From: Escherichia phage EC121
Sequence record: NC_054909.1
Strand: one strand, 5' to 3'
DNA length: 64,000 bases
Part shown: positions 1 to 39,941 of the stretch, in pieces
Position numbering within the stretch: position 1 is the first letter of the stretch
Layout: every line of letters starts with the position of its first letter
The notes under the pieces: model-generated
Databases searched by the model: none
The model's input: the letters and a program-made list of their open reading frames with translations, nothing else
What the model was told of the DNA's origin: nothing
Position numbers and translations under genes: made by a program

Positions 1-212
1 ATCATATAAGTACCCGCGTCAGAAAGAGCTTCTTCATAGTACCCGTTAATTTCTTTAAGAGTCCTACGTTTACCACCAGGACCATCAACAGTGATTTTCC
101 ATTTACCTGTAGAAGTGCGACTTGGCGGCTCAACTTGTTCAATCCAGATATAACCGCCTTCTACACGTTGTCCTGCAGCAGATTCTGCAATAAATTCTTT
201 ATACGTTTTCAT
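1..212 (-). CDS. Internal head protein with capsid-targeting sequence (IPIII-like by position); 3' part lies beyond window start
   Basis: Minus-strand ATG at 212..210 preceded by GGAAAC; hand translation gives MKTYKEFIAESAAGQRVEGGYIWIEQ..., matching the T-even internal-protein N-terminal consensus; sits directly downstream of e as ipIII does in T4. Confidence 0.55.
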   Translation of the reverse strand, partial: MKTYKEFIAESAAGQRVEGGYIWIEQVEPPSRTSTGKWKITVDGPGGKRRTLKEINGYYEEALSDAGTYM

Positions 213-249
213 GTGTTTCCTTTAAATATTTTAATTAGTAACTGTGAAT

Positions 250-283
250 ATACTATCACAGTTCTAGGAGAAAGTAAACAACT
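250..283 (-). promoter_or_regulatory. T4-type early promoter (GTTTAC -35, 18-nt spacer, TAGTAT -10) with inverted repeat CTGTGA/TCACAG around the -10
   Basis: rc reads GTTTACTTTCTCCTAGAACTGTGATAGTATATTCACAG; same architecture recurs five more times in the window. Confidence 0.4.
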
Positions 284-3104: not shown

Positions 3105-3698
3105 TTATTTCAGAGAATTAATGTATTCCTGAACATCAGCAGAGGTAGTTTCAACCCCAGAAATATTGCCATTAAAGGTTTCAACTCGGGCAAGAGTATC
3201 TTCAATATCAACCTTAGTCAGCGCTGCAATTTCAACTACATCATCAGCAGTACTAATTCCGAGGGCATTCGCGGCGCGAGTTTCACGGATATATTCCAAT
3301 TTAACTGCAAGTTCTTGGCGAGCATCATCTAACTCAACTACTTTCTTGGCGATTTCAATTCGCATTTCAGCATAACCATCAGCTTTAGTAGTCAACTGCT
3401 CAGCTGTTCGACGATATAGTAAACCAAGTTTAGCATGCATTGTTACATCTTGACCTTCCGAAAGAAGCTTGCGAATTTCACGCTCTTTTGATTCGGCCTG
3501 CTTATTCTTTTCGACAATAAGTTCACGAATACGTTTTTCTTCATTAATAGATTTAATAGAAGCAGTTTTTAGATCTTTAATTTTATCAAGTAGTTTTGCT
3601 GCTGCGGCAGTATACTGTTCTTCAACAGATAGATTTTTAGCCATAGCAGAACCAAGTTTAGTGCGAATAAACTCAACAATTTTCTTCAGTGTGTTCAT
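3105..3698 (-). CDS. Hypothetical coiled-coil protein
   Basis: 197-aa ORF, ATG at 3698 with SD AAGGAAA; heptad-rich charged sequence ([27 protein letters not shown]...). Confidence 0.6.
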
Positions 3699-3775
3699 AG
3701 TATTTCCTTAGGTTGATTAAGATTTAAAATCCGTGAGAGTATTAGTATTATACTCTATCTTCAAGTTATGGGCTC

Positions 3776-3805
3776 ATAATATCTCAATCATGAGCCTATG
3801 TAAAC
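3776..3805 (-). promoter_or_regulatory. T4-type early promoter (GTTTAC-N18-TATTAT) with stem-loop GGCTCAT/ATGAGCC around the -10
   Basis: rc: GTTTACATAGGCTCATGATTGAGATATTATGAGCC; lies upstream of the 3105..3698 ORF. Confidence 0.45.
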
Positions 3806-4069
3806 TTATTTCATATTATTGAAATATTCTTCTGCGATTTCGTCGTTATCATGGTAAACTTTAGAAGACAATTTAACATAACCTTCAGCAGTGAACATGT
3901 TAATCACAACCTTTACAGTATACCACTGACCGTCTTCATTGCCCATTACCGCATAAGTTTCAAACATCGGATGATCAGGACCGATAACTTTAATATCATT
4001 CACTGTACGACCGAAATCTTCTGAAACACATTTCATAAAGAAGTTGAACAGTTCGCCGTAATTATCCAT
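3806..4069 (-). CDS. Hypothetical protein
   Basis: Track ORF starts at a TTG (4081); first ATG at 4069..4067 (MDNYGELF...) has SD GGAG 7 nt upstream. Confidence 0.5.
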   Translation of the reverse strand: MDNYGELFNFFMKCVSEDFGRTVNDIKVIGPDHPMFETYAVMGNEDGQWYTVKVVINMFTAEGYVKLSSKVYHDNDEIAEEYFNNMK

Positions 4070-4112
4070 TTCGTTCTCCAAGTTGTTTTCTGTATCAGTA
4101 GTTGATAGTTGT

Positions 4113-4142
4113 ATAGTACCATGGAAGAACAGGGATGTAAAC
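4113..4142 (-). promoter_or_regulatory. T4-type early promoter (GTTTAC-N18-TACTAT)
   Basis: rc: GTTTACATCCCTGTTCTTCCATGGTACTAT, upstream of the 3806..4069 ORF. Confidence 0.45.
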
Positions 4143-4271
4143 AGTTTTGTGAAAAAATTTTTAAAAAGTTTTGGGGAATTCTAGGGCAGGGAGGGGAAAT
4201 CAAAGGATAGGATAATATATTATAAAGGGTAGAAACTAAATGATGTCTAGAGAGGCCTGGAAAGGCCTAGA

Positions 4272-4302
4272 TACCAAAAAGCCCCAACCTTTCGGCTGGG
4301 GC
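4272..4302 (-). terminator. Rho-independent terminator (minus strand)
   Basis: rc reads GCCCCAGCC-GAAA-GGTTGGGGC followed by TTTTT; immediately after the stop of the 4311..4784 ORF. Confidence 0.6.
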
Positions 4303-4310
4303 TAAGAATG

Positions 4311-4784
4311 TTATTTGATTTGTTTAGCAGACCAAATGCGGTCTTTAATAATTTTTTGGATGTCTTCAACATACCCAAGAGAGTGAGCATGTGGGTTATC
4401 TTTGAAACTATAAGCACGAGCCAGTTTTTGGCCTTCAGTTTTGATTACTAAAAGCTCTTTAAGAATAGCTTCATATTTGGAGATAATTCCTTTAACAATA
4501 TTTTTCTCTTGTGCGACTTTAGGATCTGCTTTAGGAGCAGGTTTACCTGAAGCCTTTGCAAAAGCAGCGCCAGTAGCAACTAAACTTTTCCAGGCCATAC
4601 TAACTGCATTTCCCGTAAATCCTTCCGCTTTCATGTCGCGTGCGAACTGGAATCGCGATTCATCAGAAGCATCTTTGTAAGAATATTTACCCGCTGCAAT
4701 GGCTGCTTTTGCGACAGCTTGAATTTCGGTGCTAGATGCTTCATTTAACACCGCTTCATTTAAAAATTGAGTATATGATTTCAT
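4311..4784 (-). CDS. Putative capsid-packaged internal protein (N-terminal capsid-targeting-sequence-like MKSYTQFLNE)
   Basis: 157-aa ORF, ATG at 4784 with SD AGGAAA; N-terminus resembles the T-even internal-protein CTS (MKTYQEF...) with an LNE site of the kind cut by the prohead protease; own late promoter and flanking terminators. Confidence 0.6.
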   Translation of the reverse strand: MKSYTQFLNEAVLNEASSTEIQAVAKAAIAAGKYSYKDASDESRFQFARDMKAEGFTGNAVSMAWKSLVATGAAFAKASGKPAPKADPKVAQEKNIVKGIISKYEAILKELLVIKTEGQKLARAYSFKDNPHAHSLGYVEDIQKIIKDRIWSAKQIK

Positions 4785-4824
4785 CTTATTTCCTGTTTTA
4801 ATTCGTGGTTTTAATATACTACTA

Positions 4825-4832
4825 TATTTATA
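4825..4832 (-). promoter_or_regulatory. T4 late promoter TATAAATA (minus strand)
   Basis: plus-strand tatttata at 4825..4832, about 40 nt upstream of the 4784 start codon. Confidence 0.5.
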
Positions 4833-4834
4833 CC

Positions 4835-4861
4835 AAAAAGCCCCAACCTTTCAGTCGGGGC
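4835..4861 (-). terminator. Rho-independent terminator (minus strand), near-copy of the 4272..4302 element
   Basis: rc: GCCCCGACT-GAAA-GGTTGGGGC + TTTTT; the 36-bp block ataccaaaaagccccaacctttc.g..ggggctaag occurs at 4271..4306 and 4829..4864. Confidence 0.6.
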
Positions 4862-4865
4862 TAAG

Positions 4866-5165
4866 CCTTGCGGCAACCTTGTCGGGGTTCCACCTGCTAA
4901 GGCAAGTGTTTGTACGAAACGCCGGGATTCGAACCCGGTTATTAAGCAGTTGACGCTACTCAATATTTTTAAAAGGCCATATCTCGACCATATCCGAACG
5001 TTCCGTCAAAAACGCTACTCGGTTTACGGCAAAGATATTTCCTCGAATCGATAATTCGGTGCGCCGTTTCTGCTGTGATAGTAAAGAGCCAGAACACAGT
5101 AAAACTGTGGGAGGAAACTATACTCCAGGGAACATCAGTCCGACGACTTACCGGTAGCGACCCGG
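4866..5165 (-). ncRNA. Putative small stable RNA region (T4 rnaC/rnaD-like position), boundaries not resolved
   Basis: ~300 bp with no ORF, between the tRNA cluster side and a terminator; contains a tRNA-like T-arm (rc ACCGGGTTCGAATCCCGGCG at ~4919..4938); T4 encodes two stable RNAs at the distal end of its tRNA cluster. Confidence 0.3.
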
Positions 5166-5169
5166 TTTC

Positions 5170-5520
5170 TTAGTATTCTTTTAAAGCATCAACCTGTTCA
5201 CGACGTTTACGCCATAAATCAATTACTTCATACGCAGATTCAGCATTTCGAATTGGACGGCATTTATATAAAGACTTGTGATTTTGATATTGTGTAGATA
5301 ACGGAATTTTATCTAAAAGGTCTTTACGTTCAAAATATTCGTAACCATCTAAACCAAATGAACGATTTTTGAGAAATTGCCAATGACCAAATTCGTTTTC
5401 GACATAAACATAATCTGCATGCTGATAAAGCAAATTAATTACACGTTCAGAAATAACAGTATCATTATGATTAAAATAGAATGTTAAATCATGAACTACT
5501 AAATAAACATTACCTTTCAT
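5170..5520 (-). CDS. Hypothetical protein embedded in the tRNA/small-RNA cluster
   Basis: 116-aa ORF, ATG at 5520 with SD GAGGAAAA; no recognisable motif (not GIY-YIG). Confidence 0.55.
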   Translation of the reverse strand: MKGNVYLVVHDLTFYFNHNDTVISERVINLLYQHADYVYVENEFGHWQFLKNRSFGLDGYEYFERKDLLDKIPLSTQYQNHKSLYKCRPIRNAESAYEVIDLWRKRREQVDALKEY

Positions 5521-5538
5521 ATTTTCCTCACTTATAAT

Positions 5539-5614
5539 TGGTCGAGGCAGTAGGGATCGAACCTACGACCCAGGACTTAGAAGGTCCTTGCTCTTCCTTC
5601 TGAGCTATGCCCCG
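5539..5614 (-). tRNA. tRNA-Arg (anticodon TCT)
   Basis: Hand-folded cloverleaf, anticodon arm AGGAC-CTTCTAA-GTCCT, T-arm GTAGG-TTCGATC-CCTAC, CCA encoded. Confidence 0.8.
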
Positions 5615-5618
5615 TAAT

Positions 5619-5694
5619 TGGGGTGACCGATGGGAGTCGAACCCATGACTACGAGAATCACAATCTCGAGTTCTACCAACTGAACTACGGCCAC
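5619..5694 (-). tRNA. tRNA-His (anticodon GTG)
   Basis: GTGGCCGTAGTTCAGTTGGTAGAAC-T-CGAGA-TTGTGAT-TCTCG...CCCATCGGTCAC-C-CCA; anticodon loop and C73 as in bacterial tRNA-His; no G at -1. Confidence 0.7.
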
Positions 5695-5808
5695 ATTAAT
5701 ACCTACTCCAACAATCATGATGTCTTCACACGAAATTAAGAGAAGAGTGATCAGTTCAACCCCTATAATCGCGTCAAGTAGATATTAATGTGACAGTTGT
5801 CACAAATT

Positions 5809-5883
5809 TGGCGGACGTGATAGGATTCGAACCTATAACCAATCGCTTAACAGGCGATCGCTCTGCCATTGAGCTACACATCC
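5809..5883 (-). tRNA. tRNA-Asn (anticodon GTT)
   Basis: GGATGTGTAGCTCAATGGCAGAGC-G-ATCGC-CTGTTAA-GCGAT...; acceptor and T stems pair, CCA encoded. Confidence 0.75.
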
Positions 5884-5887
5884 AAAT

Positions 5888-5974
5888 TGGTGGGGAGTGA
5901 TGGAGTCGAACCACCCGAGTCGCAATGACAATGAATTTACAGTCCACACCGCTACCTCTACGGGATAACTCCCC
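5888..5974 (-). tRNA. tRNA-Tyr (anticodon GTA), class II with long variable arm
   Basis: Anticodon arm GTGGA-CTGTAAA-TTCAT (two G-U pairs), variable-arm hairpin GTC-ATTGC-GAC, T-arm GGTGG-TTCGACT-CCATC, acceptor GGGGAGT/ACTCCCC, CCA encoded. Confidence 0.6.
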
Positions 5975-5981
5975 CTTAATT

Positions 5982-6056
5982 TGGTGGCCCTGGGTGGAAT
6001 TGAACCACCATCTGGCGATTATGAGTCGCTTGCTTGAACCTTCCAGCTACAGGGCC
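5982..6056 (-). tRNA. tRNA with CAT anticodon (T4 tRNA-Ile type)
   Basis: GGCCCTG acceptor, anticodon arm AGCGA-CTCATAA-TCGCC, T-arm GGTGG-TTCAATT-CCACC, CCA encoded. Confidence 0.75.
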
Positions 6057-6057
6057 T

Positions 6058-6133
6058 TGGTGCTGATTGACGGAATCGAACCGCCGACATCCTCATTACA
6101 AGTGAGGTGCTCTACCTACTGAGCTAAATCAGC
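6058..6133 (-). tRNA. tRNA-Thr (anticodon TGT)
   Basis: GCTGATTTAGCTCAGTAGGTAGAGC-A-CCTCA-CTTGTAA-TGAGG...TCAATCAGCACCA. Confidence 0.8.
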
Positions 6134-6138
6134 AAAAC

Positions 6139-6228
6139 TGGCGGAGGCGATAGGATTTGAACCTATGAGTCGCCGGAGCGACTGCCGGTTTTCAAGACCG
6201 GTGCATTAAACCACTCTGCCACGCCTCC
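6139..6228 (-). tRNA. tRNA-Ser (anticodon TGA), class II
   Basis: Anticodon arm CCGGT-CTTGAAA-ACCGG, long variable arm, acceptor GGAGGCG/CGCCTCC. Confidence 0.75.
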
Positions 6229-6230
6229 AG

Positions 6231-6304
6231 TCTCCATACAAGGATTTGAACCTACGACATTCTGCTCCCAAAGCAGACGCTCTACCAAACTGAGCTACAC
6301 GGAG
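6231..6304 (-). tRNA. tRNA-Pro (anticodon TGG), CCA not encoded
   Basis: Acceptor CTCCGTG (C1:G72), anticodon arm TCTGC-TTTGGGA-GCAGA; T-stem pairs only 3 bp as I read it; separated from tRNA-Ser by 2 nt. Confidence 0.65.
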
Positions 6305-6314
6305 TAAATTAAAT

Positions 6315-6388
<74 letters not shown>

Positions 6389-6393
6389 AAATT

Positions 6394-6480
6394 TGGTGCG
6401 AGAAGTGGGACTCGAACCCACAAGGAAATAATTCCGCAGCATTTTAAGTGCTGTGCCTTTACCAATTTGACCATTCTCGC
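6394..6480 (-). tRNA. tRNA-Leu (anticodon TAA), class II
   Basis: Acceptor GCGAGAA/TTCTCGC, anticodon arm CAGCA-CTTAAAA-TGCTG, variable-arm hairpin GGAA/TTCC, CCA encoded. Confidence 0.75.
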
Positions 6481-6481
6481 G

Positions 6482-6554
6482 CTGGGAATAAAGGACTCGA
6501 ACCTTTGCATCTAGCAGTCAAAGTGCTATGCCTTACCAACTTGGCTAATTCCCA
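6482..6554 (-). tRNA. tRNA-Gln (anticodon TTG), CCA not encoded
   Basis: Acceptor TGGGAAT/ATTCCCA, anticodon arm TAGCA-CTTTGAC-TGCTA, T-arm AAAGG-TTCGAGT-CCTTT. Confidence 0.75.
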
Positions 6555-7560: not shown

Positions 7561-7590
7561 ATAGTATCACAACTAAAACCCTATGTAAAC
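7561..7590 (-). promoter_or_regulatory. T4-type early promoter (GTTTAC-N18-TACTAT) with stem-loop ATAGGG/CCCTAT around the -10
   Basis: rc: GTTTACATAGGGTTTTAGTTGTGATACTATTACCCTAT. Confidence 0.45.
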
Positions 7591-7608
7591 AACTTTGTGA
7601 AAAATTTA

Positions 7609-7893
7609 TTACAAAAGATTTTTAGCAATAATTTTAAGCTGAGCTACTGAAATATGCTTGGCTTTAAACAAAGCAGTTTCTTCAGCAGGGGAGATAATGA
7701 TTGTGGCACCATCTTTCTTAGCGGACCATCCATCACCCAGGTAAACAGTACCTTTAACTTCTTCACCATCAACCAGGCTAATCATCGGTTTACCTTCACG
7801 TCCTTTGTTTGCTTTAATAACTTCAGAAGTAAGGGTCGCTTCAGTCAAAGTAGAAGCGTTAGTGGTTGAAGTGAATTCTTGATAAGTTTTCAT
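7609..7893 (-). CDS. ipI: Internal protein I (capsid-packaged, injected)
   Basis: 94 aa, MKTYQEFTSTTNASTLTEATLTSEVIKANKGREGKPMISLVDGEEVKGTVYLGDGWSAKKDG...; CTS-type N-terminus and a mature part I recognise as T4 IPI. Confidence 0.85.
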   Translation of the reverse strand: MKTYQEFTSTTNASTLTEATLTSEVIKANKGREGKPMISLVDGEEVKGTVYLGDGWSAKKDGATIIISPAEETALFKAKHISVAQLKIIAKNLL

Positions 7894-7923: not shown

Positions 7924-7953
7924 ATAGTATCACTACCTCATCAGCATGTAAAC
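7924..7953 (-). promoter_or_regulatory. T4-type early promoter (GTTTAC-N18-TACTAT) with stem-loop GAGGTA/TACCTC around the -10
   Basis: rc: GTTTACATGCTGATGAGGTAGTGATACTATTACCTC, upstream of ipI. Confidence 0.45.
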
Positions 7954-7965
7954 AACTTTGTGAAA

Positions 7966-36454: not shown

Positions 36455-36879
36455 TGCTTCTGATCCCTGAAACTCATGAATTAGTTCTCGAGAATGTCGA
36501 AGCACTTATTCCTGAAGCACAGGGTCGCTTTGACGAATTGTCTTCTGCTTTAAATAAAGACGATATAAATACAATTGTCGAGAATATGCTTGATGATGAA
36601 ACTGATTTAGCGATTGCATTAGCTTCTATTAATGAAGATATGCCGCTAAATGAATTCATCGTTAAACATGTTTCTGCTCGTGGTGAAATTACACGTACTA
36701 AAGACCGCAAGACGCGTGAACGTAATGCATTTCAAACCACCGGGCTGTCTAAAGCAAAACGTAGACAAATTGCTCGCAAAGCTACCAAAACGAAGATTGC
36801 CAACCCAGCAGGTCAATCTCGTGCTCAGCGTAAGCGTAAAAAAGCTCTTAAACGCCGTAAAGCATTAGGATTAAGCTAA
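36454..36879 (+). CDS. 68: gp68, prohead core protein
   Basis: 141 aa, synteny 67-68-21. Confidence 0.85.
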
Positions 36880-37517
36880 TGAATGAACCCCAATTACTAA
36901 TTGAAACTTGGGGTCAACCTGGCGAAATTATTGATGGCGTGCCAATGCTTGAATCCCATGATGGAAAAGACTTAGGTTTAAAACCTGGTTTATACATCGA
37001 AGGAATATTCATGCAAGCAGAAGTCGTCAATAGAAATAAACGTCTTTATCCAAAACGTATATTAGAAAAAGCGGTAAAAGACTATATTAATGAGCAAGTT
37101 TTAACTAAACAAGCTCTCGGAGAATTAAATCATCCTCCACGCGCTAATGTTGACCCGATGCAAGCCGCTATCATTATAGAAGATATGTGGTGGAAAGGAA
37201 ATGACGTATACGGACGAGCTCGTGTTATTGAAGGTGACCATGGTCCTGGAGATAAATTAGCAGCTAATATTCGTGCCGGATGGATTCCAGGAGTTTCTTC
37301 TCGTGGATTAGGTTCATTGACTGACACAAATAAAGGTTATCGTATCGTAAACGAAGGATTCAAATTAACTGTAGGTGTTGATGCAGTATGGGGTCCAAGT
37401 GCTCCAGATGCATGGGTAACTCCTAAGGAAATTACCGAATCACAGACGGCGGAAGCCGATACAAGTGCCGATGACGCCTATATGGCTCTCGCAGAGGCCA
37501 TGAAAAAAGCGTTATAA
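36879..37517 (+). CDS. 21: gp21, prohead core protease
   Basis: 212 aa, synteny. Confidence 0.9.
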   Translation: MNEPQLLIETWGQPGEIIDGVPMLESHDGKDLGLKPGLYIEGIFMQAEVVNRNKRLYPKRILEKAVKDYINEQVLTKQALGELNHPPRANVDPMQAAIIIEDMWWKGNDVYGRARVIEGDHGPGDKLAANIRAGWIPGVSSRGLGSLTDTNKGYRIVNEGFKLTVGVDAVWGPSAPDAWVTPKEITESQTAEADTSADDAYMALAEAMKKAL

Positions 37518-38375: not shown

Positions 38376-39941
38376 ATGACTATCAAAACTAAAGCTGAAC
38401 TTTTGAACAAATGGAAGCCATTACTGGAAGGTGAAGGTTTACCGGAAATTGCTAATAGCAAACAAGCGATTATCGCTAAAATCTTTGAAAACCAGGAAAA
38501 AGATTTCCAGACAGCTCCAGAGTACAAAGACGAAAAAATCGCTCAGGCGTTCGGTTCTTTCTTAACAGAAGCTGAAATCGGTGGTGACCACGGTTACAAC
38601 GCTACTAACATCGCTGCTGGTCAGACTTCTGGCGCAGTAACTCAGATTGGCCCAGCTGTTATGGGTATGGTACGTCGTGCTATTCCTAACCTGATTGCTT
38701 TCGATATTTGTGGTGTTCAGCCGATGAACAGCCCGACTGGCCAGGTATTCGCACTGCGTGCAGTATATGGTAAAGACCCAATCGCTGCCGGTGCTAAAGA
38801 AGCATTCCACCCAATGTATGGTCCAGATGCAATGTTCTCTGGTCAGGGTGCTGCTAAGAAATTCCCAGCTCTGGCTGCTAGCACACAAACCACAGTAGGT
38901 GATATCTATACTCACTTCTTCCAGGACACTGGTACTGTGTATCTGCAGGCTTCTGCTCAAGTAACAATTAGTTCTACTGCAGATGATGCAGCTAAATTAG
39001 ATGCTGAAATTAAGAAACAAATGGAAGCTGGCGTACTGGTAGAAATTGCTGAAGGTATGGCTACTTCTATCGCTGAACTCCAGGAAGGTTTCAACGGTTC
39101 TACCGATAACCCATGGAATGAAATGGGCTTCCGTATCGATAAACAAGTTATCGAAGCTAAATCTCGCCAGCTGAAAGCTGCTTACTCTATCGAATTAGCA
39201 CAAGACCTCCGCGCTGTTCACGGTATGGATGCTGATGCTGAACTGTCTGGTATTCTGGCTACCGAAATCATGTTGGAAATCAACCGTGAAGTTGTTGATT
39301 GGATTAACTACTCAGCTCAGGTTGGTAAATCTGGTATGACCCTGACTCCTGGTTCTAAAGCTGGTGTATTTGACTTCCAGGATCCGATTGATATTCGTGG
39401 TGCTCGCTGGGCGGGTGAATCCTTTAAAGCTCTGTTGTTCCAGATTGACAAAGAAGCAGTTGAAATTGCTCGTCAGACCGGTCGTGGTGAAGGTAACTTC
39501 ATTATCGCTTCCCGTAACGTAGTTAACGTTCTGGCTTCAGTTGATACTGGCATTTCTTATGCTGCACAGGGTCTGGCTACCGGCTTTAACACTGATACTA
39601 CCAAGTCAGTATTTGCTGGTGTTCTGGGTGGTAAATACCGTGTATATATCGACCAGTATGCTAAACAGGATTATTTCACTGTAGGTTATAAAGGTCCGAA
39701 CGAAATGGATGCTGGTATTTACTATGCTCCATATGTAGCTCTGACTCCGCTGCGTGGTTCCGATCCGAAGAACTTCCAACCAGTAATGGGATTCAAAACT
39801 CGTTACGGTATCGGTATCAACCCATTTGCAGAATCCGCTGCTCAGGCTCCGGCTTCTCGCATCCAGAGCGGTATGCCTTCTATTCTGAATAGCCTTGGTA
39901 AAAACGCTTACTTCCGCCGTGTATATGTTAAAGGTATCTAA
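38376..39941 (+). CDS. 23: gp23, major capsid protein
   Basis: 521 aa, MTIKTKAELLNKWKPLLEGEG...; strongly E. coli-like codon usage (ctg/cgt/ggt rich) unlike flanking genes. Confidence 0.98.
   Translation: MTIKTKAELLNKWKPLLEGEGLPEIANSKQAIIAKIFENQEKDFQTAPEYKDEKIAQAFGSFLTEAEIGGDHGYNATNIAAGQTSGAVTQIGPAVMGMVRRAIPNLIAFDICGVQPMNSPTGQVFALRAVYGKDPIAAGAKEAFHPMYGPDAMFSGQGAAKKFPALAASTQTTVGDIYTHFFQDTGTVYLQASAQVTISSTADDAAKLDAEIKKQMEAGVLVEIAEGMATSIAELQEGFNGSTDNPWNEMGFRIDKQVIEAKSRQLKAAYSIELAQDLRAVHGMDADAELSGILATEIMLEINREVVDWINYSAQVGKSGMTLTPGSKAGVFDFQDPIDIRGARWAGESFKALLFQIDKEAVEIARQTGRGEGNFIIASRNVVNVLASVDTGISYAAQGLATGFNTDTTKSVFAGVLGGKYRVYIDQYAKQDYFTVGYKGPNEMDAGIYYAPYVALTPLRGSDPKNFQPVMGFKTRYGIGINPFAESAAQAPASRIQSGMPSILNSLGKNAYFRRVYVKGI

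Follow-up and report, generated by a model that had tools for sequence, protein, structure and literature searches.

A candidate internal head protein encoded by a modular, late-promoter-type unit of Escherichia phage EC121

Introduction

Between e.8 and rnaC (species 1 RNA) phage T4 has no gene, and in the same gap Escherichia phage EC121 has a 157-amino-acid (aa) open reading frame (ORF), preceded by a putative late promoter and bracketed by two copies of one hairpin, which raises the question of what this self-contained unit encodes and how it comes to be present in some T4-like phages and absent from others. The locus was analysed within a stretch of 64,000 nucleotides of the EC121 genome (NC_054909.1), hereafter the window. 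The reading preferred here, at a probability of roughly 0.7, is that the ORF encodes a packaged and processed T4-type internal head protein (Ip), as its N-terminal sequence suggests. A specific anti-defence role, which is argued by analogy, is rated about half as probable.

At least ten Ips have been named, at the ipI and ipII/III loci. Known Ips have only their capsid-targeting sequence (CTS) in common, and recognising them by it is established practice. Ip1, Ip2 and Ip3 each block a different GmrSD type IV restriction enzyme, with no cross-protection (PMC12373910), and IPIII is needed by T4 to infect ECOR17. Until 2025 a target was known for only one T-even internal protein, and Ip4-10 and several active GmrSD variants are still unmatched (PMC12373910).

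Results

A conserved gene between rnaC and e.8

The window is 98.9% identical to RB51, RB68, wV7 and related Tequatrovirus genomes, and its gene order is that of T4 (e, nudE, e.2-e.8, rnaC/rnaD, the tRNA cluster, trna.2-4, ipI, 57B onward). The 157-aa ORF that the original prediction had placed at 4311..4784 is indeed present, on the minus strand, with the N-terminus MKSYTQFLNEAVLNEA, of which the first residues are MKSYTQFLNE followed by A11.

4311..4784, minus strand: candidate internal-protein coding sequence, 157 aa, PHROG 2280, identical to hypothetical protein KMC01_gp130 (Escherichia phage EC121)
4791..4794, minus strand: Shine-Dalgarno sequence AGGA, 6 nt before the ATG, read from the sequence

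The gene was found by tblastn in 510 phage records (468 at a coverage of at least 80%), with one copy per genome. Nearly all depositors named it "hypothetical", and the label of PHROG 2280 is "unknown function", while one UniRef entry for the Klebsiella homologue is titled "Internal head protein". The ratio of nonsynonymous to synonymous divergence (dN/dS) over the whole gene was 0.10-0.14 against two diverged alleles (JK1, 79% identical, and PhAPEC2, 76%), indicating that the minus-strand frame is under purifying selection and that the ORF is a real gene. Overlapping plus-strand ORFs (4308-4451 and 4441-4680) were dismissed, the conserved frame being that of the minus strand (dN/dS ~0.1).

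The N-terminus as a capsid-targeting sequence

The CTS of T4 is MKTYQEFIAE, and internal proteins are cut once beside it (PMC8442874). In a review of Black's work, suppressor mutagenesis of IPIII assigns targeting chiefly to residues 4 and 7, and processing to residues 8 and 10 (PMC9026906). For packaging, the 10 N-terminal residues of IPIII are enough, the propeptides of internal proteins are 10-19 residues long (PMC9026906), and the 10-residue CTS of T4 alone packages foreign proteins (PMC9026906, PMC8442874). The EC121 protein carries Y4 and F7, corresponding to the targeting determinants, and L8 and E10, corresponding to the processing determinants, followed by Ala. When its N-terminus was aligned with the CTSs of T4 internal proteins it matched that of IPIII at residues 1-11 with these critical residues present, and in BLASTP and profile comparisons the similarity to T4 IPIII and to a neighbouring paralogue was confined to the same residues, a restriction to the CTS that is also the pattern seen among known Ips.

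The original prediction had likened this start to those of ipI and of a truncated ORF at 1..212, which begin MKTYQEF and MKTYKEFIAE. A six-frame scan of the window for M[KL].[YF]..F returned seven matches, and a start in MK[ST]Y was found in only three of them, namely the 157-aa ORF, ipI and the ORF at 1..212. The other four were three short fragments and a 420-aa ORF starting MLDF.

7609-7893, minus strand: ipI, starting MKTYQEF, Pfam IPI_T4 (3.5e-51)

Relatives of the protein were gathered by word-indexed and exhaustive profile searches, and 12 non-redundant sequences, with identities to the window protein falling from 82% to 23%, were aligned. All aligned sequences share M1 and F7 and have either Y or F at position 4, and L8 is kept in 90% of them or more. 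The propeptide ends in E in each case, with A, G or S as the usual next residue; few other columns are as conserved as these determinants. The starts of the relatives include MKTYNEFLMTE/A, MKSYAEFLTE/Q, MKFKEFLAE/A, MLKFNEFLAE/G, MINFSDFLNE/G and MISFNEFVDGNLITE/S (slashes mark predicted cuts). Orthologues with a CTS-like start come from Tequatrovirus, Mosigvirus, Jiaodavirus, Yersinia phages and metagenomes, at identities down to 23-30%; a search among them for any lacking such a start found none, all conforming to M-x-x-[YF]-x-x-F-[LV]...E and then mostly A/G/S.

The window allele has tandem sites, L8-N-E10/A11 and L13-N-E15/A16, its LNE/A site being doubled by a 15-bp tandem duplication, TTAAATGAAGCG-GTG-TTAAATGAAGCA (4737-4763, minus strand), and a single site of this type is found in the alleles of JK1, PhAPEC2 and Klebsiella phages. 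The predicted N-terminus after cleavage is AVLNEASSTEIQAVAK for a cut after E10 or ASSTEIQAVAK for a cut after E15.

4740..4784, minus strand: predicted propeptide, codons 1-15, comprising the CTS MKSYTQFLNE (residues 1-10) and a second LNE/A site at residues 13-15
4314..4739, minus strand: predicted mature protein, residues 16-157, 15.4 kDa, isoelectric point (pI) 9.7

EC121 encodes the machinery by which proteins with a CTS are taken up and processed, namely the prohead core and the gp21 protease; genes for gp22 (T4_CASP) and gp67 (GP67) also lie in the window.

36879..37517, plus strand: gp21 prohead protease, Pfam Peptidase_S77 (E = 1.5e-111), the enzyme expected to remove the propeptide
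38376..39941, plus strand: gp23 major capsid protein, with the maturation site S-F-L-T-E65/A66

The gp23 site, whose cleavage at residue 65/66 we take to be established for T4, is close to Q-F-L-N-E10/A11 of the candidate. The gp21-type LNE site claimed for the protein thus stands as a predicted cut, with L8 and E10 conserved and the gp23 site FLTE/A encoded in the same window.

Promoter and paired terminators

The gene is preceded by an exact T4-type late promoter motif at the claimed position and lies between two similar repeats.

4825..4832, minus strand: late promoter motif TATAAATA, T4-type, 40 nt upstream of the ATG
4830..4865, minus strand: upstream 36-nt repeat, predicted intrinsic terminator of the tRNA/rnaC unit, with stem-loop 4839-4862, GAAA loop and T5 tract
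4271..4306, minus strand: downstream 36-nt repeat, the candidate's own predicted terminator, with stem-loop 4280-4303; right-hand edge of the 559-bp module

The motif occurs 24 times in the window against 9.3 expected. Upstream of the gene, JK1, ES19 and Klebsiella phage phiKp_22 share this arrangement of hairpin, T5 and (G/A)GTATAAATA, and Mosigvirus PhAPEC2 has AATAAATA at the late-promoter position, so that the motif is kept next to the hairpin in three genera, including, in the same position, the Klebsiella phage genus with its different hairpin. The stretch from the hairpin to the ATG yielded no sigma-70-like promoter.

The two repeats are 92% identical, and the last three bases of the upstream one are the first three of the late promoter. 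Both score as intrinsic terminators, as had been claimed, each combining a GAAA loop on a 10-bp stem with a T5 tract, and their predicted folds are stable (-22.8 and -19.0 kcal/mol; z = -3.3 and -2.9). Of the coordinates first given for them, 4271..4306 was right and 4829..4864 was off by one base (4830-4865); their near-identity held. The possibility that they are ubiquitous terminators was examined with a degenerate 33-nt pattern, which gave exactly two matches in 64 kb (0.00 expected), both marking the exact edges of the 559-bp module. No Rfam model matched rnaC or the hairpins.

Occupancy of the rnaC-e.8 gap

The neighbours of the module are those of the T4 site.

4913..5051, minus strand: rnaC (species 1 RNA), left neighbour, coordinates transferred from the RB68 annotation (window coordinate = RB68 (L001) coordinate minus 401)
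3806..4081, minus strand: e.8, right neighbour, with its own early promoter at ~4113-4155

In T4 the rnaC trailer is followed by one hairpin (AGCCCCGACCGAAAGGTTGGGGCTTTTT), ~50 nt after the rnaC 3' end, then by GGTATCTAAGCC... and the e.8 early promoter. In the window the order is rnaC trailer, hairpin, GGTAT/AAATA..., gene, ...CATTCTT/hairpin and GGTATCTAGGCC... (slashes here mark joints), the repeat delimiting a 559-bp unit that contains the gene. When the two flanks alone served as query, 710 records were matched; in the rows sampled, the spacing of the flanks is either ~990 bp (occupied) or ~430 bp (empty). The empty site with a single hairpin is found in T4, T2 and PST, and the empty set also includes RB10, KIT06 and W143 among the sampled rows.

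A second occupant of the gap is a 187-aa paralogue, named RB69ORF149c or RB14ncORF136c, which starts MKTYAEFLTE/AAK, also belongs to PHROG 2280 (1.6e-53) and is present in 165 phage records. RB14 and RB69 carry the module of this gene instead, in the order hairpin, AGTTTGAATCACTC..., ATAAATA motif, gene, terminator CCCTATCTAAATGATAGGG and GGTATCTAGGCC flank. In ES19 (Tequatrovirus) and PhAPEC2 (Mosigvirus) the gap holds the two modules in tandem, and the 157-aa gene lies between duplicate copies of the first hairpin; the two copies in ES19 are identical over the 28 nt compared. The same hairpin forms the joint to the 187-aa module in all four phages.

RB69 (L007), 5429-5991: 187-aa module
RB14 (L009), 1301-1864: 187-aa module
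ES19 (L008), 1301-1864: 187-aa module
PhAPEC2 (L004), 3589-4152: 187-aa module

In the RB69 reference a frameshift splits the 187-aa gene into ORF149c and ORF148c.

Mosigvirus shows the duplicated-hairpin indel too, with both copies sharing the genus's own stem variant, and the upstream and downstream stem variants are swapped between the window and JK1. In Klebsiella Jiaodavirus the gene has the same place after the tRNA cluster, next to an unrelated hairpin (UUCG loop) followed by the same ...TTTTTAGTATAAATA junction. The locus thus exists in four occupancy states (none, 157-aa only, 187-aa only, both), and all joints lie at the hairpin or the T-tract, which argues that the rnaC-e.8 gap is a third, modular locus of putative internal proteins. 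This comparison across T4-like genomes, in which the repeats mark module boundaries and the site is empty in T4, T2 and PST, supports the exchangeable cassette envisaged in the original prediction: a module that is present or absent, with repeats at its edges and four occupancy states. The gene is always at this locus, and T4 may have lost it or others may have gained it, both routes leaving an identical scar.

A basic protein of two unequally evolving domains

The mature form is computed at 15.4-15.9 kDa with a pI of 9.6-9.7, compared with 9.3 for T4 IPII and 9.5 for IPIII, and like known Ips the protein is small, basic and variably present among T-even phages. In an AlphaFold2 model built on an 8-sequence alignment (mean predicted local distance difference test score, pLDDT, 76.7; predicted template modelling score 0.48), a low-confidence N-terminus (1-17) is followed by an N-domain of three helices (18-75), which the linker KPAPKADPK (76-87) connects to a long helical hairpin (88-154). 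The propeptide (codons 1-15) has a pLDDT of 56-64, indicating that this stretch is predicted to be flexible. Profile matches to sequences of the Protein Data Bank (Old Yellow Enzyme, streptavidin) were rejected as weak, low-complexity hits in and around the Ala/Pro/Lys-rich linker, and beyond the CTS no sequence or fold homology was found to the GmrSD inhibitors IPI* (PF11634), IPII or IPIII.

Among coliphage alleles the N-domain exceeds the C-domain 4-10-fold in nonsynonymous divergence (dN 0.21-0.36 versus 0.03-0.05), and the C-domain has a dN/dS of 0.04-0.07. The C-terminal half is no longer recognisable in the Klebsiella and Yersinia relatives and in some metagenomic ones, where it ends in ...DVGRHYKKL, which is read here as the mark of a probable different C-terminal module; divergent halves with a distinct ending motif suggest that the protein is modular. 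Many database alleles end early, at 93-111 aa (P0006, P0008, P0014, P0026, P0040, P0042). In P0006, P0008 and P0014 the break is a frameshift at an A-run just after ...AQEK (window ~4495-4510), which leaves the N-domain and linker. Homopolymer sequencing errors could account for such alleles, as could real decay, or they may be functional forms consisting of the N-domain only.

Other internal-protein loci and neighbouring genes

The ORF cut by the window edge (1-212, minus strand) starts MKTYKEFIAE/SAAGQ..., a perfect CTS, and its position immediately downstream of e is that of the ipII/ipIII locus. Assigned to PHROG 3966 ("unknown function"), it is not T4 IPIII, and looks like a second unannotated Ip-like family. 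RB68, a close relative of RB51, has no gene between denV and e (L001 1-700 compared with window 1-283) and hence no ipII/ipIII-locus protein, and its main CTS-bearing proteins may be the 157-aa protein and Ip5.

The ipI gene of the window is bracketed by near-identical early-promoter blocks (TTTCACAAAGTTGTTTACAT ... GTGATACTAT) at ~7924-7965 and 7561-7604 on the minus strand, which resemble the classical repeats of PeSL type at that locus; a third copy of the block precedes e.8 (~4113-4155, minus strand). The window also holds eleven tRNA genes (5539-6554, minus strand), including those for His, Asn, Tyr and Met, compared with eight in T4, and a 116-aa ORF (RB69ORF150c-like, PHROG 3355; 5170-5520, minus strand) between tRNA-Arg and rnaD, where T4 has none.

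Discussion

Proposed course of expression, packaging and exchange

From its control signals and N-terminus we infer that the 157-aa protein is transcribed late, packaged, cleaved and injected. RNA polymerase directed by gp55 would start late at TATAAATA, directly after the tRNA/rnaC terminator, giving a single-gene message that would end at the second hairpin copy. The CTS MKSYTQFLNE would dock the product onto the gp22 scaffolding core of the prohead, and gp21 would cut after LNE10 and/or LNE15, yielding a basic, all-helical protein of ~15.4-15.9 kDa that would stay in the head with the DNA and enter the next host on ejection. If Ip1, Ip2 and Ip3 are a guide, its most likely job there would be the neutralisation of a first-response host defence, for which the faster-evolving N-domain may be the specificity determinant. 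At the level of the locus, the rnaC-e.8 gap would hold 0, 1 or 2 modules of two alternative kinds, both built in the order late promoter, CTS-bearing gene, terminator, and modules would come and go through homologous recombination in the terminator hairpin and T-tract.

Several observations weigh against parts of this proposal. The candidate CTS differs from that of T4 at positions 3, 5, 6 and 9 (S, T, Q and N instead of T, Q, E and A), the promoter and terminator are consensus matches only, and literature searches found no virion proteome mentioning the 157-aa protein, RB32ORF132c or RB69ORF149c. No function is indicated for the protein or its paralogues by Pfam, NCBIfam or PADLOC, which gave no family, or by fold searches with the model, which returned only family members or generic helical hairpins and so suggest no mechanism. 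Frameshifted alleles are common, and the gene could often be decaying. The anti-defence role is further weakened by the finding that Ip4-10 gave no reproducible inhibition of any tested GmrSD (PMC12373910), from which it follows that membership of the Ip class does not fix a target. Nor are strong purifying selection and a near-invariant C-domain among coliphages what a fast arms race involving the whole protein looks like.

Alternative explanations

The protein may be packaged for a physical purpose, such as neutralising DNA charge, organising the DNA or helping its ejection, with no part in anti-defence. A pI of 9.6, a simple helical fold, strong purifying selection (dN/dS ~0.1 overall, 0.04-0.07 in the C-domain), conservation of gene and locus in at least three phage genera with differing hosts and cytosine modifications, and the lack of reproducible anti-GmrSD activity in Ip4-10 would all suit such a role. 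However, T4, T2, PST and RB10 do without the gene and frameshifted alleles circulate, showing that it is not a required structural element, all three T4 Ips of known function are defence inhibitors, and a nonsynonymous rate 4-10 times faster in the N-domain than in the C-domain fits the tracking of a target; a solely physical role is considered unlikely. The chances are far slimmer that the product, though made late, stays in the cytoplasm and does not enter the head, its CTS-like start being a relic of 5' ends or ribosome-binding-site regions exchanged among ip-type genes. T-even genomes do recombine heavily at short homologies, and the similarity to known Ips spans only 10-11 residues. Yet a relic would decay, and the targeting and cleavage residues are among the best conserved at 23-30% identity, the cut-site Glu is followed mostly by A/G/S, as in gp23, and a late protein with such an N-terminus is expected in the prohead, given that the 10-residue T4 CTS suffices to package foreign proteins.

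It is also conceivable, if somewhat doubtful, that the flanking repeats are no evidence of a cassette, in that the gene is ancestral, its terminators are similar as per-gene terminators may be, and the empty site of T4 is a one-off deletion between direct repeats. Recombination between 36-nt direct repeats leaves one copy, as in T4, the gene has the same locus and occurs once in every genome examined, and its guanine-cytosine (GC) content of 0.386 is typical of the phage (0.361). Four occupancy states among close relatives, with all joints at the hairpin or T-tract, are nevertheless hard to fit to a single deletion, as are the empty state in several distinct phages (T4, T2, PST, RB10, KIT06, W143), the Mosigvirus duplicated-hairpin indel with its own hairpin variant, and the swap of upstream and downstream variants between the window and JK1. 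An ancestral gene would touch only the direction and frequency of exchange, without conflict with the interpretation of the product as an internal head protein, which is retained here.

Comparison with known systems

With IPII and IPIII the candidate shares a propeptide of ~10 residues with an aromatic residue at position 4, F7, an aliphatic residue at 8 and E10 followed by a small residue, and it is likewise small, basic, non-essential and variably present. Unlike them, it has no detectable homology past residue 11, lies at rnaC-e.8 and not at denV-e, and has its own putative late promoter and terminator, and its packaging is predicted. IPI/IPI* (PF11634, GmrSD inhibitor) also has a CTS-type start and is a single gene bracketed by repeated regulatory sequence, and it provides the functional precedent for an injected anti-restriction protein; the candidate differs in having no PF11634 match, and the ipI gene of the window has early-promoter repeats on its two sides, where the candidate has terminator repeats, and encodes a propeptide of 19 residues. 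Ip4-Ip10 (Repoila et al. 1994, as cited in PMC12373910) were likewise recognised by the signal sequence alone and are mutually unrelated and hypervariable, but, unlike the candidate, they were all described at the ipI locus and belong to PHROGs labelled internal virion or head protein. PHROG 2280 was not among the ip1-10 genes tested in PMC12373910, and its sequence is absent from the supplements of that study (Silas et al. 2025). The "IpIV" of PST, also of 157 aa, was rejected as the same protein, its sequence being unrelated (DUF7412, PHROG 3155).

The arrangement of the unit resembles PeSL/PmSL cassettes (Arbiol 2010, PMC2839356; Comeau 2014, PMC4122927), which combine a G/C-rich stem-loop terminator with a promoter and a Shine-Dalgarno sequence. 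Their copies lie on either side of single accessory genes, at places where close relatives differ by indels, as do the copies here. The model proposed for these cassettes is homologous recombination between copies (PMC2839356, PMC4122927). In contrast to their sigma-70-like early or MotA middle promoters, the promoter of the candidate is of the late type (TATAAATA), and the duplicated part here is only the hairpin and T-tract, the first three bases of the promoter alone lying inside the repeat; in the first PeSL paper (Arbiol 2010, PMC2839356) the term "late promoter" never occurs. Lambdoid morons are similar in being self-contained units of promoter, ORF and terminator between two undisturbed genes, but the present unit belongs to a virulent phage, with predicted late-lytic expression and a predicted virion component in place of a lysogenic-conversion factor. 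A foreign origin of the moron kind was rejected, since the GC content is native (0.379-0.386 for the module, with 0.386 for the gene, against 0.361 for the window).

A tentative extension and its significance

What is new here is a candidate CTS-bearing family, PHROG 2280, at a probable third modular locus based on late-promoter motifs, a modest extension of the Ip class. A broader and decidedly tentative proposal is that the PHROG 2280 proteins (157-aa and 187-aa) may constitute a new class of two-domain injected effectors, in which the N-domain would recognise a defence outside the three known Ip targets, for example one of the five active GmrSD clusters for which no inhibitor has been found or another first-response system. 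At this third Ip locus the joints of hairpin and late promoter would then be the late counterpart of PeSL, letting co-infecting T-even phages trade ready-to-express effectors. Members of the family occur both in phages whose cytosine derivatives are glucosylated and in phages where they are arabinosylated, which argues against a target tied to one sugar.

The family is present in roughly 470-630 sequenced T4-like phages, many of them isolates for phage therapy or biocontrol, and has remained "hypothetical" despite its Ip signal, a label by which it was left out of anti-GmrSD screens. Its recognition would correct the annotation of a PHROG family and would add two candidate injected effectors for which T4 and T2 are natural nulls, and the rnaC-e.8 gap would offer a cleanly modular third locus for studying how determinants of host range are swapped.

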